Shown one piece after another: positions 2,142 through 32,000 of a stretch of DNA of 32,000 nucleotides. The notes under the pieces were generated by a model. It ran no database searches and had not been told where the DNA came from. It worked only from the letters and a program-made list of their open reading frames with translations. This DNA comes from Idiomarina loihiensis L2TR (lineage in GTDB: Bacteria > Pseudomonadota > Gammaproteobacteria > Enterobacterales > Alteromonadaceae). Numbering within the stretch: position 1 is the first letter of the stretch; each line of letters begins with the position of its first letter. The translations under genes and the position numbers were made by a program. Where the stretch lies: NCBI RefSeq assembly GCF_000008465.1, contig NC_006512.1, forward strand, positions 930,001 through 962,000, in the 5' to 3' direction.

Positions 2142-2156
2142 TAAGGAGGCAACGCC

Positions 2157-3764: not shown

Positions 3765-3780
3765 TCGGAGGTTATTAATA

Positions 3781-4566
3781 ATGGCAAAATACACCAAGCT
3801 TGATATTAACGACCAGGGCGTTGCCACGCTGACATTGAACCGGCCTGACGTTCACAACGCGTTTGACGACGTGATGATCGCAGAGCTGCTGCAGGCGTTA
3901 AAAGAAGTTGAAGAAAGTGCCAGCGCGAGAGTGCTGGTGCTTCGCTCAGAAGGTAAAAACTTTTCTGCCGGTGCGGATCTTAAATGGATGCGCTCCATGG
4001 CCGATAAAAACTACCAGCAAAACGTGGATGACGCGGGTGAGCTTGGGCTGTTAATGGAGCGTCTGGACTTGCTCAGCAAGCCCAGCATTGCTTTAGTCCA
4101 GGGAGCCGCTTTCGGCGGTGCCGTAGGCCTGGCCGCTTGCTGTGACATTGTACTGGCGCAGCCGCGCAGCAGCTTCTGCCTGAGTGAAGTCAAAATTGGG
4201 CTTATTCCTGCGGTTATCAGCCCTTATGTTGTGCGTACTATTGGCGAGCGCCAGTCGCGTCGCTATATGCTCACCGCCGAGCGCTTCTTTGCCGACAAAG
4301 CACAGGAGCTAGGTCTGGTTAACGAAGTTGTAGAAGATTTCGAGGAGCCACTGAATAAGTTATTAGAAGCTCTTCTAGCCAATAGTCCACAAGCGGTAGA
4401 CGCCTGTAAGCAACTGATTCGCAATGTTGGTTCACGTCCAGTTGATAAAGACGTGCGTGAACACACCATTAAAGCCATTGCCGAAATTCGCGTGTCGGAA
4501 CAAGGTCAGGAAGGACTCAGTGCGTTTCTTGAAAAACGCCCCGCCGCCTGGCTTAAACAGAGTTAA
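3781..4566 (+). CDS. liuC: methylglutaconyl-CoA hydratase (enoyl-CoA hydratase/crotonase family)
   Basis: Crotonase fold motifs (FSAGADLKWM, GAAFGGAVGL). ATG 3781 (MAKYTKLDIN) preceded by GGAGG. The longer ORF-track start at 3721 lies inside liuB. Confidence 0.85.
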   Translation: MAKYTKLDINDQGVATLTLNRPDVHNAFDDVMIAELLQALKEVEESASARVLVLRSEGKNFSAGADLKWMRSMADKNYQQNVDDAGELGLLMERLDLLSKPSIALVQGAAFGGAVGLAACCDIVLAQPRSSFCLSEVKIGLIPAVISPYVVRTIGERQSRRYMLTAERFFADKAQELGLVNEVVEDFEEPLNKLLEALLANSPQAVDACKQLIRNVGSRPVDKDVREHTIKAIAEIRVSEQGQEGLSAFLEKRPAAWLKQS

Positions 4567-4580
4567 CAACAGGTCTCATT

Positions 4581-6551
4581 ATGATCAAAACATTATTGAT
4601 TGCGAACCGTGGTGAAATTGCCTGTCGTATTATTGCCACAGCTAAAAAAATGGGAATTCGCACCGTAGCGGTATTCTCCGATGCCGACCGTAACTCACGC
4701 CACGTTAAGCTGGCAGATCAGGCCGTACATATTGGTCCTGCAGCGAGCACGGACAGTTACCTGCGTGCGGACAAAATTATCGCCGCTGCTAAACAAACTG
4801 ATGCCGAAGCCATTCATCCTGGTTACGGTTTTCTCTCAGAGAACGAAGATTTTGCCGACCAATGTCAGGCTAACGATATAATCTTTGTTGGCCCGCCAGT
4901 ATCATCCATTGCCGCTATGGGTTCGAAGAGCGCGGCTAAATCCATTATGCAGGACGCCGGCGTACCTCTGGTTCCGGGTTACCACGGAAGCGAGCAGGAC
5001 ATTAAAACGCTAAAAGCAGAAGCTGAAAAAGTGGGTTTCCCGTTACTGCTGAAAGCGGCGTACGGCGGCGGTGGTAAAGGCATGCGTGTGGTCGAAAACA
5101 TGGGCGAATTCGATGACGCCCTGAATTCCGCCAAACGCGAAGCTAAGTCCTCTTTCGGCAATGATAAAATGCTGATGGAACGTTTTATTCGTAACCCTCG
5201 CCACGTAGAGATTCAGGTGTTCACCGATGAACACGGTAACGCCGTTTATCTAGCAGAGCGCGACTGTTCAGTGCAACGCCGTCACCAGAAGGTGCTTGAA
5301 GAGGCTCCTGCTCCGGCACTAACCGAGAAAACACGTACCGAAATGGGCGAAGCTGCCATTCGAGCAGCCCAGGCAATAAATTACGTTGGCGCCGGTACGG
5401 TTGAGTTTTTGTTCGACCAAAGTGGCGAGTTCTACTTTATGGAGATGAACACTCGCTTACAGGTTGAGCATCCGGTTACGGAGATGATCACCGGCCAGGA
5501 TTTAGTCGAATGGCAGTTGCTGGTCGCTTCGGGTCAGCCATTACCTCTGGCGCAAAATGACATTCAGGTAAACGGTCACGCGTTTGAGGCACGGATTTAC
5601 GCCGAAGACCCGGACAACGATTTCTTACCCTGCACAGGTACCATTAAGCATTTACGTACGCCTGCAGAAGAAAACGGCATCCGCATTGACACCGGTATTG
5701 AAGAAGGCGATGAGATATCTGCTTTCTATGACCCAATGATAGCTAAGCTGATTGTCTGGGACACCGATCGTACCCGTGCCCTGCTGCGTCTGCAAAAGGC
5801 TTTGCGTGAATATCGTTTAACTGGGTTAACGACTAACGTCGACTTTTTGCATCGTTTGGCTTCGCATCCTGAGTTTGTGAAAACAAACCTGACAACCGAA
5901 TTTATCCAGCAACATCAGGAAGAGCTTCTGCCCGATAGCTCGGTAAATTGTCAGCAAATTGCAACGGAAGCGGCTTTGTTTGATATTTGTCAGCGCCAAC
6001 AACAGCGTGGCAGTTCACCATGGCAAAGTGGTAATGCATTTAGAATGAACTCAGCGGCGACACATACGGTTCCACTGCAATTTGGCGAAGAAACCTACTC
6101 CATTTCACTAATAGAAACCGCTAACGGAGAGTTCCTGCAGCAAGTTGATGACGAAAGCATACAATGGCAGGCATCTTTAACCGACGACAAACTCACTCTG
6201 ACTGCCGGTAGTATGCGCTATCATCGCTATGTCAGTGCCGACGACCAGCAAATTACCGTATTCACCGATAACGGCCCTATGACTTTCCATCGACACCGCG
6301 TGACTGATACGCTGTCGGATGAAGCGGCCCATGGTGGTCACGTTGCCCCAATGAACGGGACCATCATGGAAGTACTGGTCAAAAAAGGCGATACAGTCAA
6401 GAAAGATCAACCGCTGGTCATTATGGAAGCCATGAAAATGGAGTACACCATTAAAGCTGGCCATGAAGGTGAAGTCACCGACGTCTTTTTCGCCGCGGGG
6501 GATTTGGTCAGCGACGGCGATGAACTGCTTACAGTGAGCGAAGCCGAATAA
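4581..6551 (+). CDS. liuD: 3-methylcrotonyl-CoA carboxylase, biotin carboxylase/BCCP (alpha) subunit
   Basis: 656 aa. Biotin carboxylase N-terminus (MIKTLLIANRGEIACRII), ATP-grasp region, and a C-terminal biotinyl domain with the EAMKME attachment motif. Confidence 0.92.
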   Translation: MIKTLLIANRGEIACRIIATAKKMGIRTVAVFSDADRNSRHVKLADQAVHIGPAASTDSYLRADKIIAAAKQTDAEAIHPGYGFLSENEDFADQCQANDIIFVGPPVSSIAAMGSKSAAKSIMQDAGVPLVPGYHGSEQDIKTLKAEAEKVGFPLLLKAAYGGGGKGMRVVENMGEFDDALNSAKREAKSSFGNDKMLMERFIRNPRHVEIQVFTDEHGNAVYLAERDCSVQRRHQKVLEEAPAPALTEKTRTEMGEAAIRAAQAINYVGAGTVEFLFDQSGEFYFMEMNTRLQVEHPVTEMITGQDLVEWQLLVASGQPLPLAQNDIQVNGHAFEARIYAEDPDNDFLPCTGTIKHLRTPAEENGIRIDTGIEEGDEISAFYDPMIAKLIVWDTDRTRALLRLQKALREYRLTGLTTNVDFLHRLASHPEFVKTNLTTEFIQQHQEELLPDSSVNCQQIATEAALFDICQRQQQRGSSPWQSGNAFRMNSAATHTVPLQFGEETYSISLIETANGEFLQQVDDESIQWQASLTDDKLTLTAGSMRYHRYVSADDQQITVFTDNGPMTFHRHRVTDTLSDEAAHGGHVAPMNGTIMEVLVKKGDTVKKDQPLVIMEAMKMEYTIKAGHEGEVTDVFFAAGDLVSDGDELLTVSEAE

Positions 6552-6583
6552 TAAGACATTATTAGAAGTAACCAGGAGTAATT

Positions 6584-7483
6584 ATGGCAATTGCAGAACA
6601 GATAAAAATCGTCGAAGTTGGTCCTCGTGACGGCTTGCAAAATGAAGCAGCTGTTTCTGTCGATGCAAAAGTTGCCTTAATTGAAGCGCTGGCAGAAGCC
6701 GGCGTTTCTTACATTGAAAGTGCCAGCTTTGTCAGCCCCAAATGGGTGCCGCAAATGGCCGACAGCCCTGCCGTTATGAAGCAGATTAAGCGTCGCCCTG
6801 GAGTGACTTACGCTGGTTTAACGCCCAATTTGAAAGGGTTTGAAGCGGCAGTTGCAGTCAACATGGACGAAGTCGCAGTGTTCGGTGCAGCATCGGAAGC
6901 CTTTGCCCAAAAAAATATTAACTGCAGCATCGACGAATCACTGGAGCGTTTTAAGCCAGTTATTGCCGCGGCTAAAGAAAAAGGCATTCCCGTCAGAGGT
7001 TATGTTTCCTGCGTTTTGGGTTGCCCTTACCAGGGTGAGGTTCCGGTAGAAAATGTGGTTAAAGTTGCAGAAGCTTTATACCACATGGGCTGTTATGAAG
7101 TATCGCTGGGCGACACCATAGGCGTCGGTACACCGCTAAAAGCTCAGGAAATGCTTGCTGCGGTGGCGGAAAAAGTCCCCATGGACAAACTGGCGCTGCA
7201 TTTTCACAATACATACGGACAAGCTTTGGCCAATATCATAGCCTGCCTGCCACTAGGTGTAGCCACCATTGACTCGGCCGTAGCTGGCCTGGGTGGTTGC
7301 CCATACGCTAAAGGCGCCAGTGGCAATGTTGCCACCGAAGACGTGGTTTACATGTTAAATGGTATGGGCATTAAAACCGGTATTGACCTGAACAAGTTAA
7401 TCGCGGCCGGAGCCGATATTTGTCAGCATTTAGCGCATGGCCCCCGCTCTCAGGTCGCAGTAGCAGAATTGGCAAAAGCTTAA
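6584..7483 (+). CDS. liuE: hydroxymethylglutaryl-CoA lyase
   Basis: 299 aa. HMGL-like TIM barrel start ([12 protein letters not shown]) and [12 protein letters not shown] metal-site motif. Confidence 0.9.
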
Positions 7484-7505
7484 TTAGCAAAATAAGGGGA
7501 TTAAA

Positions 7506-9449
7506 ATGACTTCAGAAGCTTTATGGCAACCGTCAGCAGATACCATTGCTAATGCCCGCATGACAGACTTTCTACAACAAGTGAATACAGAAGAAGCCGC
7601 TGCGCTGGCCAATTATCACGACCTTTATCAGTGGTCCGTCGAGAACGACGAAAGTTTCTGGTCTATGGTGTGGGATTACTTTGATGTTATTGGTGAAAAA
7701 GGCTCTACGATAGTTACCGATAAAGAAAAAATGCCCGGTGCTCAATGGTTTCCTGAAGCCAGCCTGAATTTTGCCGAAAACCTGTTGCGTCATAAAGACG
7801 ATCATATTGCTCTAATTTTTCGCGGTGAGAATGGCACACGCCAGCAGTTAACTTATGCCGAACTCAACCACGAAGTTGCCGCTTTTGCCGAAGGTCTACG
7901 CCAACGCGGAGTTGAAGCCGGTGACCGTGTTGCCGCCATGATGCCTAACTGCATTGAGACCATAATTGGTATGCTGGCAACCACCAGCATCGGCGCTATC
8001 TGGTCGTCTTGCTCGCCAGACTTTGGCGTTCAGGGCGTGCTTGACCGTTTCGGTCAAATAGAACCTAAAGTTCTGATTACTGTTGATGGTTATTTTTATA
8101 ACGGCAAAAACCTCAACATAAAGAGCAAAACCGCCGATATCATTAAACAAATTCCCAGCATTGAAGCCACGGTGTTGGTTAATTTCAGCGAACAAAAAGA
8201 TCGCATAAAAGGCGACAAAATATTTTCATGGAGTGATTTTGGCGACGCTGAAAAGACCCAGATAGATTTCGCTCCACGCAACTTTAATGACCCGCTCTAT
8301 ATTATGTTTTCATCAGGTACTACGGGCGTACCTAAGTGCATTGTTCATGGTACGGGTGGTACCTTATTGCAGCACTTAAAAGAGCACGGTCTGCATACCG
8401 ACTTAGATCGTGACGACAATCTGTTTTACTTCACCACCTGTGGCTGGATGATGTGGAACTGGCTGGTCAGTGGACTGGCAGTGGGCGCAACCCTGACCTT
8501 ATTCGACGGTTCACCTTTTGCACCTAAACCTGAGTTTTTATGGGATGTGGCTGACGAAGAAGGCATTACCGTATTTGGTACCAGCGCCAAATATTTAGCA
8601 GCGCTTGAAAAAGAAGGCGTTAAACCGGGAGAAAGCCATAACCTGGAAAAGCTGCGCAGCATCTTAACCACGGGGTCGGTACTACCACCAGAAAGCTTTG
8701 ACTACGTTTACCGCGACATTAAAAAAGACCTGTGTCTGTCCTCAATATCAGGCGGTACGGACATTGTCTCCTGCTTTGCCCTTGGCTGCCCTATTCTGCC
8801 GGTTTACCGGGGCGAATTACAATGTCGGGGCCTTGGTTTAGCCGTTAACGTTTATGACGAGAACGGAAAGCCGGTTAAAGGCGAAAAAGGCGAACTGGTT
8901 TGTGAAAACTCATTCCCCTGCATGCCCGTAAGCTTCTGGAACGACGAGAATGGCGAACGCTACTTCAACGCGTATTTCGATAGATTTAAAAATACCTGGG
9001 CACATGGTGACTTTGCTGAGCTCACCGAGAACAACGGCGTTATTATTTACGGCCGTTCCGATGCCGTTCTTAACCCGGGCGGCGTACGTATTGGCACCGC
9101 TGAAATTTACCGTCAGGTAGAAAAGGTTGAGGAAGTATTGGAAAGTATTGCTATCGGTCAGCAATACGAAGATGACGAGCGCGTCATTCTTTTTGTAAAA
9201 CTCAGAGATGGCATAGAGCTTAGCGACGAACTTCGTCAAACCATTGCAAAAACCATTCGGGCCAACGCGACTCCGCGGCACGTACCTGCCGTAATTTTGC
9301 AGGTTGAGGACATACCCCGTACTATAAGCGGTAAGATAGTCGAATTAGCGGTACGTAATGTGGTTCACGGCGAGCCCGTGAAAAACACGGATGCTCTGGC
9401 AAACCCAGAGGCACTGGATTACTTCCGTGATAGAGAGGAGTTGCGTTAA
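7506..9449 (+). CDS. acetoacetyl-CoA synthetase (acetoacetate-CoA ligase)
   Basis: 647 aa acyl-adenylate-forming enzyme (IMFSSGTTGVPKCIVH AMP-binding motif). Its length and N-terminus are typical of acetoacetyl-CoA synthetases. It follows liuE after a 22-nt gap. Confidence 0.85.
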   Translation: MTSEALWQPSADTIANARMTDFLQQVNTEEAAALANYHDLYQWSVENDESFWSMVWDYFDVIGEKGSTIVTDKEKMPGAQWFPEASLNFAENLLRHKDDHIALIFRGENGTRQQLTYAELNHEVAAFAEGLRQRGVEAGDRVAAMMPNCIETIIGMLATTSIGAIWSSCSPDFGVQGVLDRFGQIEPKVLITVDGYFYNGKNLNIKSKTADIIKQIPSIEATVLVNFSEQKDRIKGDKIFSWSDFGDAEKTQIDFAPRNFNDPLYIMFSSGTTGVPKCIVHGTGGTLLQHLKEHGLHTDLDRDDNLFYFTTCGWMMWNWLVSGLAVGATLTLFDGSPFAPKPEFLWDVADEEGITVFGTSAKYLAALEKEGVKPGESHNLEKLRSILTTGSVLPPESFDYVYRDIKKDLCLSSISGGTDIVSCFALGCPILPVYRGELQCRGLGLAVNVYDENGKPVKGEKGELVCENSFPCMPVSFWNDENGERYFNAYFDRFKNTWAHGDFAELTENNGVIIYGRSDAVLNPGGVRIGTAEIYRQVEKVEEVLESIAIGQQYEDDERVILFVKLRDGIELSDELRQTIAKTIRANATPRHVPAVILQVEDIPRTISGKIVELAVRNVVHGEPVKNTDALANPEALDYFRDREELR

Positions 9450-9452
9450 TCC

Positions 9453-11672
9453 ATGATGTTCCTGCACGGATCACGGCAGGCTGTTATAGCAGCCCTTGTT
9501 GGTTTGGTCATTACTGTTACCGCTTTTAGCTATTTGCGTTATCAGGAAAATCAAGTTGTCCACGATGCCCTGGAAGCCGAAACTTATAACTTGCAACGCG
9601 ACATTCGACAAAGTCTGGTATCCCATTTGTTCGTCGCTGAATTGTTAGCTCGCGAGTGGGAACGTAGTGACCTTTCAATAGAGGAACGCTGGAAGGAAAA
9701 TGCCGATATCGTTACTTTGTACTATCAGAATGTACAAGGCATCACCTGGCTCAATGATGAGCTGGATATTGAGCTTATCTACCCTCAGAACGAACAACCC
9801 GAACTACTGGGAACGCCTTTTGCTAAAACTCCATTACTGGAAAAGCTGAAGGCTTCGGAAGGAAACCGTCACGCAATGATGGGCCCTGCCGGGAATTTGG
9901 GCCGTATTAGCAGCGACATAGCTATTTTTGTCCGTGTAGAGCAGCAAGATCAAACTCACGGCTTTCTGGGTTTTGTAATAAGCCTGCAAAGCCTGTTTAA
10001 CAATGTGGTGCGCAGTAACATCAGTGAAGGTTTCCAACTCAGTGTACGCAGTGACAACGACATACTGTATCAATTTGCCGGCGATACTTCATTACGCGAA
10101 GAATGGTCACATTTTCATTCACTACAATTAGTAGGAAATAGCTGGGAGCTTTCAGTCTGGCCGACCGCTGGTCATCTGGAACAACTACGCGGGGGAATTT
10201 CACTAGCCGCTTTAATCGCCGGTTTACTCGTAACCAGCATGCTGACTTTTGTCCTTTATATTTTAGGCCAGAGCCGTTTTAAAGCTCAGCAACTGGCCGA
10301 TTCAAATATTGAACTTTATAGTGAAATTGATGAACGCGAGCGCATTGAAAAGCAGATGGCTTATCTTGCCGAGCATGATTCTCTTACCGGCCTTGTAAAC
10401 CGAAACGCCTTGAAACGTATTTTGGGTGAGTGGCTGGAAACCGAATCGCCGCATAAAAAAGCCGCTTTGTTATTTATCGATTTAGATAGATTTAAGGAAG
10501 TCAATGATGCGCTGGGTCATACGGTTGGCGACGAATTGCTACGCCGGGTTGCACGACGCATTACAAAATTAGCACCTAAAGGTAGTGTTCTGGCGCGGGC
10601 TGGTGGTGATGAGTTTTTACTGGCAATAGCAAAACCTGATAGTCGCGAAAGTATTATCAAATTGTCTGAGCAAATGCTCCAGGCTTTGGACACGCACTTT
10701 TTCGTCGACGTCTATGAGCTCTTTATTAGTGCTTCTATTGGTGTCACTTTCGCGGATGATGCCGATTTTAACGCTGAATACTTTATTCGTAACGCAGACA
10801 CCGCGCTATATCAGGCAAAAGAACATGGCCGCAATACCTATAAAGTTTACGATAAAGCCATTCACCGCGACTTGACCAAAAAACTGGAACTGGTTAAACG
10901 GCTGCGCCACGCCGTTTCTAAGCAGCAACTAACGGTTTATTACCAACCTAAAGTTGAGCTCGGTAGCCGCCGTATCAGTGGTTTAGAGGCTCTGGTTCGC
11001 TGGGTTGATGACGATGGCAGTATCATTCCTCCGGATGAGTTTATTCCACTGGCTGAAGATACCGGCCTTATTATTCCTATATCGGAATACGTGATGGAAG
11101 AAGCCTTCCTACAATTAAAGCAATGGCACGAACTTGGCTTCGACGAATTGAGCATTGCCATCAATATCTCAGGAAAACAGCTACACTTAGCTGATTTGGT
11201 CGATGATATTATGGAGCGGGTTAACGAAGCACAAATACCGCCAAACAAAGTTGAACTAGAGCTAACTGAGCAAGTATTTATCGAAAATATTCAGTCCCAT
11301 ACCCGTTTCATGCACTCGGTGCGTGAACAGGGAATGTCACTGGCTATAGACGACTTTGGTGTGGGATACTCTTCGCTTTCATATTTGAAGAATTTCCCGG
11401 TTACTTCGTTAAAAATAGATCGCTCTTTTGTCAGGGATTTACCACACAACGAAGACGACGCAACCATTACGCAGACCATTATTAGTCTGGCGCGTAATTT
11501 AAACCTGCAATTGGTTGCCGAGGGTATCGAAACCGAAGAACAAGTCGAATTTTTATTACAACGTGAATGCAGTACCGGACAAGGCTTTCTTTTCAGTAAA
11601 CCGGTTCCGGCACGGCAAATCACTGAACTATTACAGCAGTATAAAGGGCTTATCCCTATCCAGATAGCCTGA
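9453..11672 (+). CDS. membrane sensor diguanylate cyclase/phosphodiesterase (periplasmic domain, GGDEF, EAL)
   Basis: 739 aa. An N-terminal TM helix, a roughly 220-aa extracytoplasmic region and a second TM helix (LIAGLLVTSMLTFVLYIL). Intact GGDEF (ARAGGDEFLL) and intact EAL (SGLEALVRW ... DDFGVGYSSLSYL). Starts 3 nt after the acetoacetyl-CoA synthetase stop. Confidence 0.9.
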   Translation: MMFLHGSRQAVIAALVGLVITVTAFSYLRYQENQVVHDALEAETYNLQRDIRQSLVSHLFVAELLAREWERSDLSIEERWKENADIVTLYYQNVQGITWLNDELDIELIYPQNEQPELLGTPFAKTPLLEKLKASEGNRHAMMGPAGNLGRISSDIAIFVRVEQQDQTHGFLGFVISLQSLFNNVVRSNISEGFQLSVRSDNDILYQFAGDTSLREEWSHFHSLQLVGNSWELSVWPTAGHLEQLRGGISLAALIAGLLVTSMLTFVLYILGQSRFKAQQLADSNIELYSEIDERERIEKQMAYLAEHDSLTGLVNRNALKRILGEWLETESPHKKAALLFIDLDRFKEVNDALGHTVGDELLRRVARRITKLAPKGSVLARAGGDEFLLAIAKPDSRESIIKLSEQMLQALDTHFFVDVYELFISASIGVTFADDADFNAEYFIRNADTALYQAKEHGRNTYKVYDKAIHRDLTKKLELVKRLRHAVSKQQLTVYYQPKVELGSRRISGLEALVRWVDDDGSIIPPDEFIPLAEDTGLIIPISEYVMEEAFLQLKQWHELGFDELSIAINISGKQLHLADLVDDIMERVNEAQIPPNKVELELTEQVFIENIQSHTRFMHSVREQGMSLAIDDFGVGYSSLSYLKNFPVTSLKIDRSFVRDLPHNEDDATITQTIISLARNLNLQLVAEGIETEEQVEFLLQRECSTGQGFLFSKPVPARQITELLQQYKGLIPIQIA

Positions 11673-11689
11673 ATATAGTGGAGGTTAAC

Positions 11690-13339
11690 GTGGAACGCGA
11701 AAGCATGGAATTTGATGTCGTCATAGTTGGTGCAGGCCCGTCAGGGTTGGCAACCGCCTGTCGACTCGGCCAACTCGCACAGGAAAATGAGCAAGAACTC
11801 ATGATATGCGTAGTTGAGAAAGGCGCTGATATTGGCGCTCATATTTTATCCGGCGCGGTGTTCGAACCACGAGCCCTGAACGAACTTTTCCCTGACTGGA
11901 AAGATCGCGGCGCCCCGCTCAATACCGAAGTTACCGGCGATGATGTTTTATTGCTAAAAGACGAAAATAATCACAGTCGCCTGCCTGACTTTAGTGTGCC
12001 TAAAACCTTTCACAATAAAGGCAATTACATTGCCAGTATGGGTAACCTGTGTCGTTGGATGGCAGAACAAGCCGAACAACTGGGCATCGAAATATTTCCT
12101 GGTTTTGCGGCCTCTGAAATTCTGTATAACGACGATGGCAGCGTTGCGGGTATTCAAACCGGTGACATGGGTGTGGCTAAAGACGGTAGCGAAAAAGACG
12201 GCTATATGCCGGGAATGGAACTGCGTGCTAAATACACCTTATTCGCAGAAGGTTGTCGCGGTCATTTAGGCAAAGAGCTGATTAGCAGGTTTGAACTGGA
12301 TAAAGACAGCACCCCGCAACATTATGGTCTAGGCTTTAAAGAAATTTGGGATGTACCAGAGGACATGCACGAGCCCGGCAAAGTGGTTCACACCGCAGGC
12401 TGGCCGCTAACCGACAGTGATGCTACTGGCGGCGGTTATCTATATCATGCCGAAGACGGACAAGTGTACTTAGGCCTTATTGTTGATCTTAACTACGCTA
12501 ACCCTTACCTGAATCCATTTCAGGAGTTTCAGCGGTTCAAAACTCACCCGGCTATTAAGCAAATCATTGAAAATGGTAAGCGGGTGTCCTACGGCGCACG
12601 CGCTATTGCTAAAGGTGGCTATTATTCGTTACCGAAAATGACCTTCCCCGGAGGTTTGCTGGTTGGCTGTAACGCAGGCACCTTAAACTTTGCCAAGATC
12701 AAAGGAAACCATACCGCAATGAAGTCGGGTATGGTGGCCGCTGAATGTGTATTTGAACAGCTAAAAAATGGTAAAGCCAACGACGACATTACCAGCTACA
12801 AAGAGGCGTTTGAAAAGTCCTGGGTATTTGATGAATTGTATCGCTCACGCAATTTCGGCGGTGCTGTGCATAAATTGGGCACAATACTTGGCGGCGCTTA
12901 TAATATGGTCGATCAAAATTGGTTTGGTGGTAAATTACCCTTTAAATTTAAAGAGTGGACACCGGATTATAAAGCGACAGGTAAAGCCGAAAACTATACG
13001 GCAATCGACTATCCAAAAGCAGATAATAAACTGACATTTGATCGTCTGTCATCGGTATTTTTGTCCAATACCAATCACGCAGAAGATCAACCCTGCCATT
13101 TAAAGCTCAGTGACGCTAATATTCCATTAGAGGTCAATTTACCGAAGTATGCAGAGCCTGCGCAACGCTATTGCCCTGCCGGGGTTTATGAAGTGGTTGA
13201 AGAAGACGGCAAACAAGTTTTTCAAATTAATGCGCAAAACTGCATACACTGTAAAACTTGTGATATTAAAGATCCTAGCCAGAATATAACCTGGGTTGTG
13301 CCCGAAGGTGGCGGCGGACCTACCTACCCTAATATGTAA
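11690..13339 (+). CDS. electron-transfer flavoprotein-ubiquinone oxidoreductase (ETF-QO)
   Basis: FAD-binding DVVIVGAGPSGL near the N-terminus and a C-terminal 4Fe-4S cluster region (CPAGVYE...NCIHCKTCDIKDP). I prefer GTG 11690 because GGAGG at 11680-11684 gives correct spacing. The ORF-track start is GTG 11678. Confidence 0.9.
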   Translation: MERESMEFDVVIVGAGPSGLATACRLGQLAQENEQELMICVVEKGADIGAHILSGAVFEPRALNELFPDWKDRGAPLNTEVTGDDVLLLKDENNHSRLPDFSVPKTFHNKGNYIASMGNLCRWMAEQAEQLGIEIFPGFAASEILYNDDGSVAGIQTGDMGVAKDGSEKDGYMPGMELRAKYTLFAEGCRGHLGKELISRFELDKDSTPQHYGLGFKEIWDVPEDMHEPGKVVHTAGWPLTDSDATGGGYLYHAEDGQVYLGLIVDLNYANPYLNPFQEFQRFKTHPAIKQIIENGKRVSYGARAIAKGGYYSLPKMTFPGGLLVGCNAGTLNFAKIKGNHTAMKSGMVAAECVFEQLKNGKANDDITSYKEAFEKSWVFDELYRSRNFGGAVHKLGTILGGAYNMVDQNWFGGKLPFKFKEWTPDYKATGKAENYTAIDYPKADNKLTFDRLSSVFLSNTNHAEDQPCHLKLSDANIPLEVNLPKYAEPAQRYCPAGVYEVVEEDGKQVFQINAQNCIHCKTCDIKDPSQNITWVVPEGGGGPTYPNM

Positions 13340-24847: not shown

Positions 24848-25327
24848 ATGAGTAAAAAGAAACCACAACAATCATCCAATACCATAGCTCGTAATAAAAA
24901 AGCGCGGCATGAATACTTCCTTGAAGACAAGTTCGAGGCAGGTGTTAGTTTGCAAGGCTGGGAAATTAAGAGCATACGGGCTGGCAAGGTCAACATTAGC
25001 GACAGCTACGTCATTATTAAAAATGGCGAGGCTTACCTTTTGGGTGCCGAAATTCAGCCTCTTAACCAAGCCTCAAGCCATGTTTATTGCGAGCCAGACC
25101 GCAGCCGTAAACTGCTGCTGAAGCGCCGCGAGCTGGATAAGCTTATTGGCGCCTCAGAGCGTGAGGGCTATTCCATTGTTGCCACAACCATATACTGGAA
25201 AGGCCCATGGGCAAAACTGGAAATATTTTTAGCCCAGGGTAAAAAGTCACACGATAAGCGCGACACCATTAAAGAGCGCGACTGGCAACGCCAGAAGGCT
25301 CGGATAATGAAGCATTCGGTGCGTTAG
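24848..25327 (+). CDS. smpB: SsrA-binding protein SmpB
   Basis: 159 aa. Collinear with E. coli SmpB, including the C-terminal tail ([21 protein letters not shown]). Confidence 0.95.
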
Positions 25328-25781
25328 TTGGAACTTCAGGTGCGTCATTCAGGCGTGCCTGTTGAAGTTTCAATAGTTGATTGAGCAACCTTTCGAGCTC
25401 TCCGTCAAAGGTATCCAGCTCAACCCGGGCATCCATAAGAATGTTGGTGGTCTGACGTAAATTAAGTAATGCCAGATTGAACCACACATTCCGATCAGAA
25501 GAATTAAGTCTCAGGGATTGCCCGTAAGCTGATTCGCTAGCTTTAAAACGATACTGTCTAAAGTAAATGTTACCGAGTAGCGCCCAACTTTTATCCGTCC
25601 CTAACCCCTTACGGTGTAACCATTGCAAATGCTGTTCCGCTGATAAGAGATCGCCATTTTTATACCAGTTAATGGCGGTATCCAGGCTCTGTTCCCTAAC
25701 TTGCCTCTCTTCTACTGTCGCGCTACAGCCTTGATTAATTAAGCTCAATAGCAATACAGCAATCAAAATGCTTGTTTTCAT
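25269..25781 (-). CDS. TPR-repeat lipoprotein (TadD-like), last gene of the Tad-like module
   Basis: Lipoprotein signal peptide [22 protein letters not shown]-like helical repeats ([37 protein letters not shown]). Its last 19 sense codons plus stop lie antisense to the smpB 3' end. Confidence 0.7.
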
Positions 25782-26127
25782 TTAGCTCTCCATGCTTGTT
25801 TATAAACTTTAATCTCTTTCCAACCCATTTTTCTAAAGGCCAAAAGTTTCCAGCAGCCATTTCAATTAATCCGTGAGCTCCTTTAAAGCGAGCGATTTCA
25901 TTGGGACAAATGAATCGACGAACCTCTATAATTTGATTTCCTTTGTCGAGGGCCACAACATCAATTGGCTCTTTCATTCCCCAAGTGTGTATTGACCTAC
26001 AAAATGGAAACCAAAAGGCCATCTCTGGCGTTGGTTGCTGCTCGCCCAGCATGCCAATTAACCTTTGATGAAACTTTTTCATGGCCTTCACCTTGGGCCA
26101 TGCAATAATTTCTTTCTCACTCGTCAT
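25735..26127 (-). CDS. DUF192 (COG1430) domain protein
   Basis: The core FCRSIHTWGMKEPIDVVALDKGNQIIEV resembles the DUF192 signature (HT-x-GM ... D-hydrophobic-hydrophobic-F/L-D). I chose ATG 26127, which forms an ATGA overlap with the tadC stop and follows AAGGAGGG. The ORF-track start at 26199 lies inside tadC. Confidence 0.6.
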   Translation of the reverse strand: MTSEKEIIAWPKVKAMKKFHQRLIGMLGEQQPTPEMAFWFPFCRSIHTWGMKEPIDVVALDKGNQIIEVRRFICPNEIARFKGAHGLIEMAAGNFWPLEKWVGKRLKFINKHGELNENKHFDCCIAIELN

Positions 26128-26912
26128 CCAAACCCTCCTTGGCTTATTTGAACAATAACTGGCCCGAGAATAACCAGAAAGTTTACGGGAAAAAAACAAG
26201 TTACTAGTGGAAAAAGGAGCTTTACGGGCGCTTCTTGCGCTCTCTTCTCCGCTGAGTTTAGTAGATCCTGTCTTAATTGGTTAGCATAAAACCTTAACGA
26301 CTTGGTTAGGCTAGTTCCTTGCTGATATCCTTTTATTAGCATCGAACTCCACTCATGGATCTGCTTCGCATCATACCGTTCAGATAGTTCATACATTGAC
26401 TGAGCAAAACTTGTCCCTCGTCGCAACCGACTGAGCATCGATGTGATCTCCCGCGCAAGCAGAAGATCGCTGCACGACGCAGATACCTTTTCTAAAGCGG
26501 AAATTAACGGAATACCTGAAGCAATCATCATAGAAATTAGATCACAAAAATCAGGAAGTTGGCGAACTATCGCTTTATTATTTTTTAGAGCTAACTGTCT
26601 TCTCTTATTTATTACCATTAGTAGTAAGAGAACATAAGCGATACTTAAAAGCCAAACCCCGGAAAGCAGAGAAATAGAGACAGATACACATGCCATAAAA
26701 ACCCAGAAGAAAAATGATCGCGCGGCTCCTTTTAGAAAATCTACTTCCAGATAACGAACAGTCCATCTTTTGACATTTTCCGGTAAAACCGACCACATTT
26801 TTGACACTGCATAATCAAGCTTTTGCCCAAGCCCCAGTATTTGCCAGAACGCGAGGACTAAAAGCGAAAAGCTAAGAGTAGCGAGAAATGTTAAGACAGC
26901 AACTATAATCAT
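26124..26912 (-). CDS. tadC: Tad/Flp pilus platform protein TadC-like (T2SS F-domain)
   Basis: 262 aa polytopic membrane protein with a cytoplasmic T2SSF-type helical domain (LPDFCDLISMMIASGIPLISALEKV ... LFPLVTCFFPVNFLVILGPV). Second of two such genes after the ATPase. Confidence 0.8.
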   Translation of the reverse strand: MIIVAVLTFLATLSFSLLVLAFWQILGLGQKLDYAVSKMWSVLPENVKRWTVRYLEVDFLKGAARSFFFWVFMACVSVSISLLSGVWLLSIAYVLLLLMVINKRRQLALKNNKAIVRQLPDFCDLISMMIASGIPLISALEKVSASCSDLLLAREITSMLSRLRRGTSFAQSMYELSERYDAKQIHEWSSMLIKGYQQGTSLTKSLRFYANQLRQDLLNSAEKRAQEAPVKLLFPLVTCFFPVNFLVILGPVIVQISQGGFG

Positions 26913-27760
26913 TTTTCATCTTCCGGATGCATAATTCGCTTAACCATCCATCCACCAATAATCATCAATATAAGAGCCACTATAAGCATAAAAATACCAA
27001 CCCGTGACTCAGTGAAAAGCGCTGTATGTTCTGATTTCATCCAACTTAAAAGAAAATACAATCCAACCGGCATCATAACGAGAATTTTAGCCTGCATTCT
27101 GGCTTGTGAAGTCAGCGTTATCTGCCGCTCTTTAATGTGCTGCTGTTGTTGGAGGTTGTCAGCCAACCTTAGAAATAAATCCGACTGTTGCCCTCCACTT
27201 TTCAAACCTAGAACTAAAGATTGAACCACGAGTTTAATGGAGAAAACAGGAACTCTCCGCTGCCAGTCTTCCAGGCAATCTGTTAAGGGTTTACCCACTT
27301 TTTCCTGTCTCAATAGCTCGTCCACCTCTTGTCCTAAAGGAGCTAATAACGTTCCTTTTAAATTCTTCAAAGCTGCTCCGACACTCGTACCACTTCTTAA
27401 CTGGTTACTAAGCCCGATCAACATACCGGGCAACTGTTTTTCAATTTTTATGTAACGTTGCTTTTTAAGATGACGATAAACAAATGGAGGAGCCAACAAA
27501 GTCAGAATAAACGTCGCTACTGCCCAGGTTCTATTAACATAAAACCATACGATTAGAGGCGATAAGAGTGTGACTACCAGATAACTTCTGACCAAAATTG
27601 TTACCGGCATTCTCAAGAAAAATTCTTCTAAAGAGCGTACCGTTGATAGCGTCAGTTTGTCTTCAAGTTGTCGATATCGCTTTGGTGTTAAATGCGAAAA
27701 GATCCAGAGCCAGCAAAGTCCGCTGCATACGATTAAGAGGGCTAATCCGAAGATGAACAT
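26909..27760 (-). CDS. tadB: Tad/Flp pilus platform protein TadB-like (T2SS F-domain)
   Basis: 283 aa. T2SSF-type domain (LPGMLIGLSNQLRSGTSVGAALKNL ... ARMQAKILVMMPVGLYFLL). 4-nt overlap with tadC. Confidence 0.8.
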   Translation of the reverse strand: MFIFGLALLIVCSGLCWLWIFSHLTPKRYRQLEDKLTLSTVRSLEEFFLRMPVTILVRSYLVVTLLSPLIVWFYVNRTWAVATFILTLLAPPFVYRHLKKQRYIKIEKQLPGMLIGLSNQLRSGTSVGAALKNLKGTLLAPLGQEVDELLRQEKVGKPLTDCLEDWQRRVPVFSIKLVVQSLVLGLKSGGQQSDLFLRLADNLQQQQHIKERQITLTSQARMQAKILVMMPVGLYFLLSWMKSEHTALFTESRVGIFMLIVALILMIIGGWMVKRIMHPEDEK

Positions 27761-28965
27761 AATCCATCTCCCATAAGTGACTCCCAGACCTCTTGACGAA
27801 TATCGTCCCCTTGCTCATCTGCGAACTTACATAATGTCATACTACTTATTAATGATTGAGTCGTATTGCTTCTTTCAAATAGTGGTGACAGCTGTAAAAC
27901 ATTATCGTCTATCCCCGTAACTTCACTGATACTAAGCACGGCTCTTCGGCCATCAGAAAGACGCGCTATCTGAACCACAATATTAACAGCACTGGCTATT
28001 TGCTGTCGTAACGCAGAAATCGGAAGCTCTATTCCACCCATCAAGACCATAATTTCCAAACGTCTTAAAGCATCGCGAGCGCTGTTAGCATGAACGGTAC
28101 TCAAAGATCCCGCATGACCCGTGTTCATAGCCTGTAACATGTCTAAAGCTTCCGACCCACGGCACTCACCTACAATAAGTCGATCAGGACGCATTCGCAG
28201 TGCATTGATAACGAGTTCACGAATATTTATAGCCCCTGTTCCCTCCTGATTTTTAGGTCTGGCCTCAAGACTTATCAGATTATTGTGATCTAATTGCAGT
28301 TCAGCCGCGTCTTCGATACTTATAATTCTTTCACCTTCAGGAATTTCCTGAGATAGAATATTTAATAAGGTTGTTTTACCCGTTCCTGTTCCACCAGAAA
28401 CAATAATATTTTGGCGACAACGAACAGCAAGCCTTAAGAATTCAGCAGCTTGCTCCGTTAATGAGCCACTATCTACCAAGTCCTCGATCGTTAGCGATTT
28501 CTTGGTGAACTTTCGAATAGTGAGACACGACCCTTTGGTTGCTAAAGGAGCTAGAACAGCGTTTACGCGAGAACCGTCTGGTAGACGAGCATCGACCATG
28601 GGGGATGCATCATCAACGTGACGGCCTAAAGGCAGAACAATCTTATCGATGGTTCGCCGCAGGGAAACCTCGTTACTGAATTGTTCATCCGCTTTCTTCA
28701 ACTTACCTGAGCGCTCAACATAGATCTGATCATAACTATTGACCATGATTTCAGTTACTGAATCATCTTCTAAAAGACCCTCAATAGGCCCCAGGCCAAT
28801 GACTTCAGCTACTGCATCTGCTATATCTTTTCCAGACTCGCCTGTAGTTTCCTTTAAATAGGATTCAGCATAGCGCCTCAACTCACATTCACTCATAGAC
28901 TCAAAACGCGGATCTCTGGTATCTAAATGCTCTTTGAGGCTGTTAATTAAATTAACTGATATCAT
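27742..28965 (-). CDS. tadA: CpaF/TadA-family secretion ATPase
   Basis: 407 aa. Walker A GGTGTGKTT, Asp box ISIEDAAEL, Walker B RPDRLIVGECRG, His box GHAGSLSTVHAN. Confidence 0.92.
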   Translation of the reverse strand: MISVNLINSLKEHLDTRDPRFESMSECELRRYAESYLKETTGESGKDIADAVAEVIGLGPIEGLLEDDSVTEIMVNSYDQIYVERSGKLKKADEQFSNEVSLRRTIDKIVLPLGRHVDDASPMVDARLPDGSRVNAVLAPLATKGSCLTIRKFTKKSLTIEDLVDSGSLTEQAAEFLRLAVRCRQNIIVSGGTGTGKTTLLNILSQEIPEGERIISIEDAAELQLDHNNLISLEARPKNQEGTGAINIRELVINALRMRPDRLIVGECRGSEALDMLQAMNTGHAGSLSTVHANSARDALRRLEIMVLMGGIELPISALRQQIASAVNIVVQIARLSDGRRAVLSISEVTGIDDNVLQLSPLFERSNTTQSLISSMTLCKFADEQGDDIRQEVWESLMGDGLCSSSD

Positions 28966-30176
28966 CGAAATGTCTCCCTTAGCTGTAAAATGGAGTCCTT
29001 CTGGTACCAGTCGTGTTTTTGCGCTAACCGTTTTTGCTTATCATGCAACCGCTCTTTAGCCGTATCCATACGCTCAGCCGTAACCATAATAATTAGTTCC
29101 GTGGTTTGCTCTCTGTTTTGCTGACTTCTGAAAGCATTTTCCAGAATCGGTAATGAACCTAAACCCGGTATCTGGTCATCCTGAGCTGACTCATCTGTAC
29201 TTAAAAGACCAGACAAAACCAGTGTGTCTCCATCATTTGAGAGAAACACCGATTCCGTACGACGACTAAGTATGCCCGGTACACCTGAAACCGAAACAGC
29301 AGGATCAATATTGCTTAATTCGGCATGAAGCTGCGTTTTTATTCTGTTGTCATCTAAAACCACCGGCTGAATAACAAGCCTTATACCGTATTCGCGGAAA
29401 GTAACGTCCTGCATACCCTGCGCGACAACTTGAGGAATAGGCAGTTCTCCTCCCGCAAGAAACGTCGCCTTCTCACCGCTTTGGGTAGATAAAACAGGAT
29501 TTGCCAATAGTTTGGCGAGACCGCGTCGCTGCATAAGCATCAGTTGGGAATTAATTTCGGCGTCCCACTCGAACAAACCTGATAAAGAGCTCGAAAATGT
29601 AGGGCCGCTCGTTGTCCCTTGCCATCTAATTCCAAGGTCTTCGAGATACTGGCGCTTGGTTTCCAGAATATTGACTCGCAAAGTCAACATAGGAGGCTCT
29701 TCCTGAAAAGATTCAGTTAAATTTAAAATCTCTTCGTGATTCTCGGAAATTTTCTCGAGTTCTTCGTAATTTCTTTTGGATACCTTGCCCGATAAAACTG
29801 TAAGCCCTGACTTTTCTGTTTTGTTAAGACTCTGTTCTGCTTCAGATATAGCTTCTAAACGCCCCTCCAGGGAGAGTTTCAGGCTAGCCGTTACCATAAT
29901 CTTTAACTCTTTTAATACCTCTTCGGATTTGAGCCAGATATCAGCTTTGCCAACTCCCACCCCTCTTAGAATTGCCCTGCTATTATCAAGCACATGAACA
30001 TCTACAACACTCTCATCACTGATAAGAATATCGCTTCCAGGTTCTATACTGATAATTCGAGTCTCACCTTCTTCAAGATAGTAGGAGCTATGATTAACCT
30101 CGGCCCGAGCACTAAGGGCGACGAAAAATAACAAAGTCACGACTAAGTAATGTTTGAACTTTACTGAACCTTCCAT
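28962..30176 (-). CDS. rcpA: RcpA/CpaC-family secretin
   Basis: 404 aa. Signal peptide (LLFFVALSARAEV), an N-terminal pilus-formation/BON-like domain (RIISIEPGSDILISDESVVDVHVL) and a C-terminal secretin domain (GLAKLLANPVLSTQSGEKATFLAGGELPIP ... PGLGSLPILENAFR). Confidence 0.9.
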   Translation of the reverse strand: MEGSVKFKHYLVVTLLFFVALSARAEVNHSSYYLEEGETRIISIEPGSDILISDESVVDVHVLDNSRAILRGVGVGKADIWLKSEEVLKELKIMVTASLKLSLEGRLEAISEAEQSLNKTEKSGLTVLSGKVSKRNYEELEKISENHEEILNLTESFQEEPPMLTLRVNILETKRQYLEDLGIRWQGTTSGPTFSSSLSGLFEWDAEINSQLMLMQRRGLAKLLANPVLSTQSGEKATFLAGGELPIPQVVAQGMQDVTFREYGIRLVIQPVVLDDNRIKTQLHAELSNIDPAVSVSGVPGILSRRTESVFLSNDGDTLVLSGLLSTDESAQDDQIPGLGSLPILENAFRSQQNREQTTELIIMVTAERMDTAKERLHDKQKRLAQKHDWYQKDSILQLRETFR

Positions 30177-30868
30177 GGTTGCACCTTGCTTTGTTTAGAA
30201 TCTTGATGCCAAATACTTGCTTGCTCTAAATGACGGCCTCTCGCCCAGACCAACATTGGACTTCCAATAGCTCTTGTAAATGCGGCTACCTTCTCGGGCT
30301 CCACCAACAATGTCAGCGAATATGAACCATATCCCTCCTGCAAGCCGTGGATATCGAAAACCTCAATTTCTTCAAATGAAACGTATTGTCTTGAGTTTTC
30401 AAAAGACTCCCCGACAAATACAATATCGACCAGATCTCCGACTTTCAGCAGCGCATTGTGGTGGCCTAAATTGTCCGTAGTGACCGTAATAGCGTAGTAA
30501 CCGTTAGGCAGAACTTCCGATAAACCATTGTTCTGATTATTCGATAGAACGCGTTCAGAAACCGGTTCACCAGATTTAACAGAACTTCGCAGTTTCCTAC
30601 CGATAATCAAATTAGCGGCGCTCTCCAAATACCAATGCTCATTGATAAGTTCGTGCGGATATTTTCGAACCAAGAGGTCGCTTACTTCTAAAATATCCCC
30701 GACATTAAGATCTTTGGAAAAAACAACAACACTATCAGCATTTCCTGACGCCTCTTGAAGTCGTCGGGAAGTTTCTTGCTGTAGATATTGATTAATTAGA
30801 AAAATCGTCACCATCGAAATTATTGAGCTAAAAATCACGGCAAAAATCCATTTCGCCTTTTTTTTCAT
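30161..30868 (-). CDS. rcpC: CpaB/RcpC-family Flp pilus assembly protein (SAF domain)
   Basis: N-terminal TM anchor (WIFAVIFSSIISMVTIFLI) followed by a SAF-like segment (VVVFSKDLNVGDILEVSDLLVRKYP). ATG 30868 is preceded by GGAGGAGGA and overlaps the pilin stop (ATGA). The ORF-track start is 30904. Confidence 0.8.
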   Translation of the reverse strand: MKKKAKWIFAVIFSSIISMVTIFLINQYLQQETSRRLQEASGNADSVVVFSKDLNVGDILEVSDLLVRKYPHELINEHWYLESAANLIIGRKLRSSVKSGEPVSERVLSNNQNNGLSEVLPNGYYAITVTTDNLGHHNALLKVGDLVDIVFVGESFENSRQYVSFEEIEVFDIHGLQEGYGSYSLTLLVEPEKVAAFTRAIGSPMLVWARGRHLEQASIWHQDSKQSKVQPWKVQ

Positions 30869-31056
30869 GATCCTCCTCCTGGTATTAGTACTAAATAGCG
30901 CCAAATAAAATAATAAAACTCTTTCGCCTCACGACCCACTTCAATTAAGTAGTCAATGAGTGAAAGTTGCTCTTCAACAACAAATAAAATGGTCATTATT
31001 AAGAGAGAGAGCAATAACCACTCTGTCGATGCCTGGCCATTTTGTTGTCTTCTCAT
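30865..31056 (-). CDS. divergent Flp-type (class III signal peptide-like) prepilin, 63 aa
   Basis: MRRQQNG|QASTEWLLLSLLIMTILFVV... A short basic leader, then Gly, then Glu at +5 and an aromatic at +6, then a hydrophobic helix. This is the G/xxxxE[YF] arrangement of Flp/TadE-type prepilins. Size and position (directly upstream of cpaB) fit a major pilin. Confidence 0.6.
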   Translation of the reverse strand: MRRQQNGQASTEWLLLSLLIMTILFVVEEQLSLIDYLIEVGREAKEFYYFIWRYLVLIPGGGS

Positions 31057-31559
31057 AGAACATGAACCAAAATCACATACTCACCTTGCTCGGAGAACAT
31101 TAGGCTTCCCATATCTTCTTTAAAGATCCAAAAGTCATGGGGTTTCTCAATCGATTGAAAAGAATCGATTTTTTGGCTGTAAGTTAATTTTAATACGTTT
31201 TTTATATCTTTGAATTTGAATGTCGATAAATAAACCCAGACCTCTTTTCCATTTTTCCGGTTTTTTGAAATGGCATTAAAAGGCCCGTCAAGCTTAGGCT
31301 TTTCCATATACGGAAGAATTATTTTACTTAAAATCCATGAACCATCATTTCCTTTGAAGAAAGTCCAGTTGTCTTCTCCAATTGGACAGATCCAAAAATC
31401 TCCATGAGGGGCTGGACAGTAGGAATAGAAATCTTCAATAACACTCCAGTCTGGAACATTAGGACTTTGTAAAAAATAAGCAGTAGCCGTCGCATTCTGA
31501 GAAATTGGCATTTCAGACCATTCCCATTTATCAAACCCTGCAGGAATATCAGCAATCAT
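31053..31559 (-). CDS. hypothetical cytoplasmic Trp-rich protein, paralog 1 (168 aa)
   Basis: Long ORF with AAGGTG 5 nt upstream of the ATG. No signal peptide or TM segment. Its stop overlaps the pilin start (CTATGAGA: ATG/TGA). The C-terminal half is clearly homologous to the next ORF upstream. Confidence 0.65.
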   Translation of the reverse strand: MIADIPAGFDKWEWSEMPISQNATATAYFLQSPNVPDWSVIEDFYSYCPAPHGDFWICPIGEDNWTFFKGNDGSWILSKIILPYMEKPKLDGPFNAISKNRKNGKEVWVYLSTFKFKDIKNVLKLTYSQKIDSFQSIEKPHDFWIFKEDMGSLMFSEQGEYVILVHVL

Positions 31560-31666
31560 ATACGCACCTTAATTAAAGCTTTACTAAGAATTTGTTACAG
31601 CTAAACCCACAGATTTTTAGAAAAGTAATTTTCCATTTTTATGTAGATAAATCTTTAGTATTCCAG

Positions 31667-32000
31667 TCATAAATAATGTGCCAAAATCACATATTCACCT
31701 TGTTCAGAAAAAACTACGCGCCCCATATCTTCTTTTAATATCCAAACATCATTTTCTTTCTCAATAGATTGAAAAGAGTCTACTTTTTGGCTGTAATAAG
31801 ACATCATTGCCGTTTGCAATGGTTTAAGCGGATATCTAGCTAAATAAATCCATATCTTTTCTCCATTACTTTCATATCCTGAAATTGGAGTAATGGGTCC
31901 CTTTAAAGATTCTTCATGTCCTGGAGACTTAGTCAGTGGCATTAGTATCCATTGTCCGTTTTCTCCCTCAAACAACGTCCATTCAGTATCTTCTATGGGA
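31667..32000 (-). CDS. hypothetical cytoplasmic protein, paralog 2 (5' end beyond the right edge)
   Basis: The frame stays open upstream of the ORF-track TTG start to the window end (my translation ...PIEDTEWTLFEGENGQWIL), and that extension still aligns with paralog 1 (CPIGEDNWTFFKGNDGSWIL). Shared blocks are YSQK[IV]DSFQSIEK and FSEQGEYVIL. Confidence 0.6.
   Translation of the reverse strand, partial: PIEDTEWTLFEGENGQWILMPLTKSPGHEESLKGPITPISGYESNGEKIWIYLARYPLKPLQTAMMSYYSQKVDSFQSIEKENDVWILKEDMGRVVFSEQGEYVILAHYL

Follow-up and report, generated by a model that had tools for sequence, protein, structure and literature searches.

Two adjacent minus-strand open reading frames (ORFs) at the end of a 32,000-nt window from Idiomarina loihiensis L2TR (contig NC_006512.1, positions 930,001 to 962,000) encode small tryptophan (Trp)-rich proteins, referred to below as X1 and X2 and, together with their homologs, as the X family. 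They lie in what appears to be an operon for a Tad/Flp pilus. The present analysis concerns their relationship to each other, to the neighboring genes and to known protein families, as well as their possible function.

The X1 and X2 genes

X2 (31053..31559, minus strand) is an ORF of 168 aa, whose Trp-rich and acidic product carries two invariant Cys residues (C48 and C58). X1 (31667..32000, minus strand) is a frame that stays open to the window edge and corresponds to the C-terminal 110 codons and the stop codon of a 166-aa paralog. An exact-protein look-up with X2 led to several contigs, among them GenBank CP005964.1 (assembly GCA_000401175.1), which we take to be I. loihiensis GSL 199 and which matches the window at every position of the 1 kb compared (100% identity); in this locus, designated L002, the full X1 gene occupies positions 9393-9893 (identical DNA), its start lying 167 nt past the window edge. 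The BLASTP alignment of X2 with the X1 fragment is free of gaps and comprises 53 identities in 110 positions (48%, E-value 2e-38), including the blocks YSQK[IV]DSFQSIEK, WI[FL]KEDMG and FSEQGEYVIL, which are identical in both proteins, and at full length (165-168 aa) the identity is 45-46%. X1 and X2 are true tandem paralogs of one protein family. Both contain 8 Trp residues (4.8%) and exactly two Cys, with an isoelectric point (pI) of 4.4-5.0, and neither possesses a signal peptide, a transmembrane helix or any hydrophobic stretch (maximum Kyte-Doolittle 19-residue window 0.58-0.93). The original prediction, made from the DNA letters alone, had described one ORF of 168 aa and a second one truncated by the window edge as clear paralogs, identical at roughly half of their positions and in the three blocks named above, rich in Trp and devoid of a signal peptide or transmembrane helix, and had noticed that the stop codon of the downstream copy overlaps an ATGA start; every one of these features was recovered.

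The overlap between the stop codon of X2 and the start of the next ORF, which encodes a 63-aa mini-prepilin (p63), reads CT-ATGA-GA (31053-31056). X1 and X2 are separated by a spacer of 107 nt (31560..31666, minus strand), which holds the Shine-Dalgarno sequence of X2, AAGGTG. A promoter/terminator scan detected no terminator in the stretch from X1 through X2 to p63, and its promoter-like matches did not rise above the shuffle expectation. The spacer is not a decayed copy of the mini-prepilin gene, to which it shows no similarity (z-scores -1.0 to 0.4). The stop region of X1 (31664-31670) has a TTATGA context, which equals the ATGA overlap motif joining X to the mini-prepilin in single-copy species and may be a relic of an ancestral X/mini-prepilin junction.

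Organization of the operon

In the operon direction, the extended gene order is queE, a ParD/ParE pair, flp (92 aa), a tadG-like gene (407 aa), a tadE/F-like gene (179 aa), X1, X2, the 63-aa mini-prepilin gene, rcpC, secretin, tadA, tadB, tadC, a DUF192 gene and a tetratricopeptide repeat (TPR) gene, followed by smpB on the other strand. The operon is headed, outside the window, by the Flp prepilin of 92 aa (RG/QGMTEYIIIVALIAV), which was recognised by the directly read motif RG/QGMTEYIIIVALIAVAAIGV, i.e. a G/xxxxEY site and a hydrophobic N-terminal helix, while the Pfam model Flp_Fap matched it with an E-value of 0.0016 and 18.6 bits, under the cut-off of 32.2 bits. This highly conserved protein is likely to be the major pilin of the operon. 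The TadG-like protein matches PF13400 (E-value 2e-8), and the TadE/F-like pseudopilin exhibits the leader KG/QATVEV. The product of p63 (30865..31056, minus strand), whose start overlaps the stop codon of X2, has the leader MRRQQNG followed by QASTEW and a hydrophobic helix, and is probably a minor rather than the major pilin. Its family (56-77 aa), which is recognised by no Pfam model, exhibits an invariant G-Q-[AS]-x-x-E motif, also in the distant operons described below, and lacks a globular domain; within Idiomarina its C-terminus ends in a conserved tail, PG[GS]G[SLVM].

The genes that follow encode a RcpC/CpaB-like protein of 235 aa (30161..30868, minus strand; Pfam SAF and RcpC domains; TIGR03177 pilus_cpaB with an E-value of 6.8e-19 and 68.1 bits, slightly below the 71-bit cut-off), a RcpA/CpaC secretin (28962..30176, minus strand; PF00263 with an E-value of 1.5e-34 and the N-terminal pilus-formation domain PF13629 with 1.3e-10), a TadA/CpaF-type ATPase (27742..28965, minus strand; PF00437, E-value 7.6e-61), and the TadB-like (26909..27760, minus strand; PF00482, E-value 3.7e-11) and TadC-like (26124..26912, minus strand; PF00482, E-value 6.9e-18) platform proteins. 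A DUF192 protein (COG1430; 25735..26127, minus strand; PF02643, E-value 4.1e-7) is kept across loci between tadC and the TPR gene, and no paper connecting DUF192 with the Tad pili of Proteobacteria was found. The last gene of the operon (25269..25781, minus strand) encodes a TPR (TadD-like) protein, for which the TPR families stay under the Pfam cut-offs. Neither a TadZ/CpaE (ParA-like) protein nor a TadV/CpaA peptidase is encoded among the genes between queE and smpB, all of which are accounted for, and a gene for a prepilin peptidase or TadZ was likewise missing from the Tad locus and from the ten large window ORFs that were scanned. Judged by its gene content, the locus is a Tad/Flp (type IVc) pilus operon without a TadZ or TadV gene.

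Start and stop codons overlap by 4-47 nt at almost all junctions of the operon, the X1-X2 spacer being the sole junction without an overlap; the ATGA at X2/p63 is therefore the rule and not the exception. The proposal that the two ORFs belong to a TadZ-less Tad-like pilus locus is borne out by the extended gene order. The ATGA coupling, which had been regarded as unusual, proves to be operon-wide, and the claim of coupling to the pilin gene stands insofar as a prepilin-like ORF adjoins X2, but that ORF is the mini-prepilin and not Flp92, the likely major pilin.

Distribution and linkage of the X family

A word-indexed search of 5.8 billion proteins returned 9 matches, 8 of which belong to the X family, and the source is Idiomarina wherever a name is given. 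An exhaustive hidden Markov model (HMM) search of 1.84 billion representatives returned 19 matches, the weakest two being repeat junk; the matches read back, full-length and fusion alike, were X members of ~165-180 aa or a 354-aa tandem fusion, and every match with an examined locus likewise belonged to the family. A scan of 185,579 species, one genome each, identified 14 X loci, all from Idiomarina or from metagenome-assembled genomes (MAGs), and in each of these 14, as in the reference, X occupies the same operon slot, between queC/queE and smpB, with 1-4 domains per locus, some of them fused. Divergent members, only 17-26% identical to X2, were found in the same slot and neighborhood (loci P0021, P0027 and P0030), and another member of this identity group (P0018) has I. 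tyrosinivorans as its source name. In the Pseudidiomarina-type loci L025 and L030 the slot is occupied by a signal-less protein of 163-164 aa, which in the case of L025 matches the X profile with an hhalign probability of 77% (E-value 1.9e-5). The database sources annotate the X proteins as hypothetical only. As far as these searches reach, the X family is an orphan, restricted to Idiomarinaceae and vertically inherited in a fixed slot. The co-occurrence with the TadZ-less Tad module that had been suggested as a check was seen in 14/14 species genomes and extends to the divergent members from metagenomes as well as to the Pseudidiomarina-type loci. It is, in our view, very likely that the Tad operon has in X a dedicated accessory protein, specific to this lineage and encoded within the pilin/minor-pilin module.

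The original prediction had also raised the possibility that X1 and X2 form an immunity-gene array belonging to a polymorphic toxin just past the window, and small, soluble, tandem and variably duplicated paralogs are indeed what such an array would contain; moreover, a ParD/ParE pair is located ~2.2 kb upstream of X1 in I. loihiensis (L002). Extension past position 32000 revealed exactly two paralogs, but no toxin, peptidase or regulator precedes them: the upstream genes encode the pseudopilin, the TadG-like protein, Flp and QueE (then QueC), with no Rhs, CdiA or other large toxin, so that the supposed toxin/effector locus dissolves into pilin-module genes, ParDE and queE/queC. The ParD-like antitoxin and ParE toxin (PF09720/PF05016; L002 6670-7211, about 2.2-2.7 kb past the window end, upstream of flp) lie outside the operon and are present only in I. 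loihiensis and in the MAG ES10-08 (L007), being absent from the other 13 syntenic loci; with an occurrence in 2/15 loci the pair looks like a recent insertion unrelated to X. In addition, the core operon holds X in one and the same slot in every genome, which is not the context of a strain-variable island, and neither PADLOC nor Pfam matched it to an immunity family. The immunity reading, which retains next to no probability, is ruled out by the extended upstream sequence and the constant operon slot.

Copy number, duplication and selection

Most species possess a single X domain. The loihiensis group (I. loihiensis, I. rhizosphaerae and the MAG ES10-08) has two, I. zobellii three and I. piscisalsi four, and in both of the latter two domains are fused in one protein of 354-355 aa (L010 6884-7951 and L011 6902-7966), connected by a hydrophilic linker of ~25 aa; P0010 in the protein database is the same tandem fusion. 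The neighbor-joining tree resolves X1-type and X2-type lineages, which originated inside the loihiensis/abyssalis/zobellii clade and were differentially retained, the abyssalis group having only the X1 type, I. ramblicola and BLK54 only the X2 type. The last X copy, of either type, abuts the mini-prepilin start, with an overlap or within ~10 nt. Since either paralog type alone can adjoin the mini-prepilin in single-copy species, X1 and X2 look functionally interchangeable as far as gene arrangement can tell.

The ratio of nonsynonymous to synonymous substitution rates (dN/dS) is 0.15 for X1 and 0.17 and 0.045 for X2, all lying between the extremes of the other genes in the operon (0.03-0.32), which indicates that X1 and X2 are real genes under constraint; X is under purifying selection. 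As regards the operon as a whole, dS of the Tad genes ranges from 1.2 to saturated between L002 and L013, as compared to 0.46 for the flanking queE, and from 0.5 to 2.7 between L002 and L016, as compared to 0.23 for queE. The 179-aa pseudopilin shows 57-64% identity in the X1-only species vs 40-42% in the X2-only species. The high dS of the Tad genes and the split among the pseudopilins suggest old allelic diversity or recombinational exchange of cassettes in the pilin module.

Sequence and fold analysis

Scans of X1, X2 and p63 against Pfam, NCBIfam and PADLOC matched no family, and a profile search of PDB sequences with X gave a chance match only (E-value 1.4). AlphaFold2 (AF2) models of X reached a predicted local distance difference test score (pLDDT) of 69 with an alignment of 9 sequences and of 83.5 with 17 sequences (predicted TM-score of the latter, 0.61). 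The predicted topology is β-β-α-β-β-β followed by β-β-α-β-β-β-β. Comparison of the N-terminal with the C-terminal half revealed no detectable sequence match that would indicate an internal repeat. Foldseek searches with the models against PDB and BFVD yielded nothing at an E-value ≤ 0.001, the best PDB match having ~0.1, and the TM-scores of the PDB and top BFVD matches were ≤ 0.34. The inability of the original prediction to place these proteins in any family is shared by the searches of Pfam, NCBIfam, PADLOC and PDB sequences and by Foldseek, and the confident HMM or structural match to a housekeeping family against which it had weighed its proposal was looked for and not obtained.

The invariant positions of the family are clustered in the N-terminal half (D4, P6, W12, W14, L30, C48, W56, C58, I60, W65, W75 and L77), with P33, P36 and W38 being near-invariant. 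Each of the 27 X domains examined has exactly two Cys, 9-11 residues apart, and across the family the pI is 4.3-6.1, the Trp content is 4.2-5.8% and hydrophobic segments are missing. The conserved N-terminus, M-x-x-D-[ILV]-P, is hydrophilic, as exemplified by MIADIPAGFDKWEW and MDLPVVLEDWSW (maximum Kyte-Doolittle 19-residue window ≤ 1.13). Two assignments were considered and rejected: X is not a type IV pilin or pseudopilin, as it has neither a class III leader ending in Gly nor a hydrophobic α-1 helix of ~20 residues with Glu at +5, and it is not a prepilin peptidase, as it is soluble and lacks the membrane topology of the aspartyl protease.

A different protein in the slot of distant operons

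Three outgroup operons of higher GC content and gammaproteobacterial type (L026, L027 and L029), reached via TadG-like homologs, share the design flp, tadG-like gene, a TadE/F-like gene (243-274 aa), slot protein, mini-prepilin (56-77 aa), rcpC and secretin, and also lack TadZ. Their slot proteins (L026 11134-11835, L027 6711-7382 and L029 5106-5807; 223-233 aa, no Pfam family) are homologous to one another (E-value 2e-7) and take the same place as X, from the TadE/F-like pseudopilin to the mini-prepilin, in an otherwise collinear operon. In contrast to X, they have neither the Cys pair nor the Trp signature, and they possess Sec-type N-termini where X has none, and no homology between X and these signal-peptide proteins was detected (profile-profile probability ≤ 0.3%). 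By this comparison of gene orders, slot protein and mini-prepilin are a conserved pair in the operon class, and the occupant in Idiomarinaceae is a different, or unrecognisably diverged, signal-less protein.

Possible functions of X

In the absence of a signal peptide, transmembrane segment or prepilin leader, X is most likely to reside at the cytoplasmic face of the pilus machine, where it would assist the minor-pilin module without being a pilin itself. Cys is missing from the mature exported proteins of the operon but present in X and in the cytoplasmic and membrane components, which, together with the missing export signal, favors a cytoplasmic role. The specific mechanism that we prefer, tentatively and as possible though not probable, is that X is a cytoplasmic chaperone for the short prepilin. 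Small, acidic and probably dimeric, it would then act as a holdase or targeting chaperone, with p63, encoded directly downstream, as its client, possibly along with other prepilins. A prepilin of 63 aa would be too short for normal co-translational targeting by the signal recognition particle, and the tandem X fusions fit dimeric action, without demonstrating it. The class I chaperones of type III secretion systems and the Eag/DUF1795 chaperones of type VI secretion systems, which handle effector transmembrane helices, are likewise small, acidic, cytoplasmic α/β proteins, usually dimeric and coupled to the gene of a hydrophobic client, and X shares with them its size, its pI (4.4-5.0 for X1 and X2) and, at every locus, its location next to the 63-aa prepilin. 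The likeness ends there: neither sequence nor structure shows significant similarity (best Foldseek E-values 0.55-0.62, TM-scores ≤ 0.34), and we know of no dedicated secretion chaperones in type IV filament systems.

Another cytoplasmic role would be to stand in for TadZ/CpaE, i.e. to serve as the docking or positioning factor for the TadA ATPase and the TadB/C platform. There is no TadZ between the secretin and tadA, and X is, besides TadA, the only predicted soluble cytoplasmic protein of the operon. Yet X, at 166-168 aa, lacks a ParA/MinD P-loop and matches neither Pfam nor NCBIfam, its gene resides in the pilin module, away from tadA, its fast evolution and variable copy number are unexpected for a motor-docking factor, and the outgroup operons are TadZ-less too, while their slot protein carries a signal peptide. 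Such a substitution is very unlikely.

Several observations weigh against a cytoplasmic accessory protein and against a chaperone in particular. Exactly two invariant Cys per domain, 9-11 residues apart, are likewise a typical pattern of exported, disulfide-containing proteins. The Sec-type N-termini of the slot proteins in L026, L027 and L029 imply that the ancestral function of the slot may be periplasmic. X evolves at about the rate of the minor pilins and RcpC. The Foldseek matches to chaperone-like folds, SciW/Eag (E-value 0.62) and the YbjN-family protein AmyR (E-value 0.55), are non-significant, and type IV prepilins are not known to need dedicated cytoplasmic chaperones.

Some of these points lead to the main alternative, in our view unlikely, that X acts outside the cytoplasm as a non-pilin partner of the tip complex of minor pilins, similar to PilY1/PilC or forming a globular 'head' of the head-less mini-prepilin. 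X would then be exported without a recognisable Sec, Tat or prepilin signal. The X gene is located between two minor-pilin-like genes in a module next to tadG, in the related operons the slot protein carries a signal peptide and the same mini-prepilin comes next, and every X domain has exactly two invariant Cys. The pilin-like fast divergence and the variable copy number of X recall the 'adaptable tips' of Tad pili (PMC12075869), whose tip (minor-pilin) modules are seen as customisable (PMC12075869, PMC13533445), and tip proteins, whether non-pilin or pilin-like, are integral to the initiation of type IV filaments (PMC13533445). Like X, PilY1/PilC are non-pilin, fast-evolving proteins encoded among minor-pilin genes, in their case in type IVa operons (PMC13533445), but they are large and have a Sec signal and a C-terminal β-propeller that donates a strand to PilK, whereas X has 166-168 aa, no signal peptide and no fold match. 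Furthermore, no member of the X family has a signal peptide, transmembrane helix or class III leader, the N-terminus is conserved and hydrophilic, homology to the signal-bearing slot proteins is lacking (hhalign probability 0.1%), and the remaining exported proteins of the operon avoid Cys altogether.

A more specific version is highly improbable: X would be a globular protein that lacks a signal but nonetheless leaves the cytoplasm and forms part of the Tad pilus tip. For instance, a minor pilin could be split into a detachable 'head', X, with its Cys pair oxidised to a disulfide, and a stem, the coupled p63. If true, a folded protein would have to pass through or alongside the platform of a type IV filament by a Sec-independent route; we know of no precedent for Sec-independent export via the Tad platform.

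Other genes in the window

The rest of the window is of a housekeeping nature. At 909-13339 on the plus strand it contains a liu-type cluster of leucine catabolism (acyl-CoA dehydrogenase, carboxyltransferase, enoyl-CoA hydratase, biotin carboxylase and 3-hydroxy-3-methylglutaryl (HMG)-CoA lyase), together with genes for an AMP-binding enzyme resembling acetyl-CoA synthetase, an electron transfer flavoprotein (ETF)-ubiquinone oxidoreductase and, at 9453-11672, a GGDEF-EAL protein. A search of the whole window with Rfam identified no RNA family.

Relationship to known Tad systems and significance

Tad pili drive adhesion, biofilm formation and surface sensing. With the Aggregatibacter flp-tadV-rcpCAB-tadZABCDEFG and Caulobacter cpa loci, the Idiomarina locus shares the Flp-type prepilin (G/xxxxEY), the TadG-like protein and TadE/F-like pseudopilins, as well as RcpC/CpaB, the RcpA/CpaC secretin, TadA/CpaF, TadB, TadC and the TPR TadD-like protein. 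It differs from them in that the locus has no gene for TadZ/CpaE, TadV/CpaA or RcpB/CpaD, in that the pilin and minor-pilin genes lead, and in its extra members, i.e. the X family, the mini-prepilin of 56-77 aa and the DUF192 protein. The Tad system as such is familiar; for the X family and for this operon variant in Idiomarina, the literature searches turned up no description.

The analysis removes a false lead, as no toxin/immunity locus is present at X1/X2, and the locus defines a compact class of Tad operons without TadZ and TadV, with a conserved slot in the pilin module whose occupant differs by lineage. In Idiomarinaceae this occupant is an orphan, Trp-rich, signal-less protein with a Cys pair, which readily duplicates and fuses. 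If X is a true cytoplasmic pilin chaperone or a tip component, it would be a new part in the assembly of type IV filaments; otherwise it would be a lineage-specific accessory gene of modest general importance.

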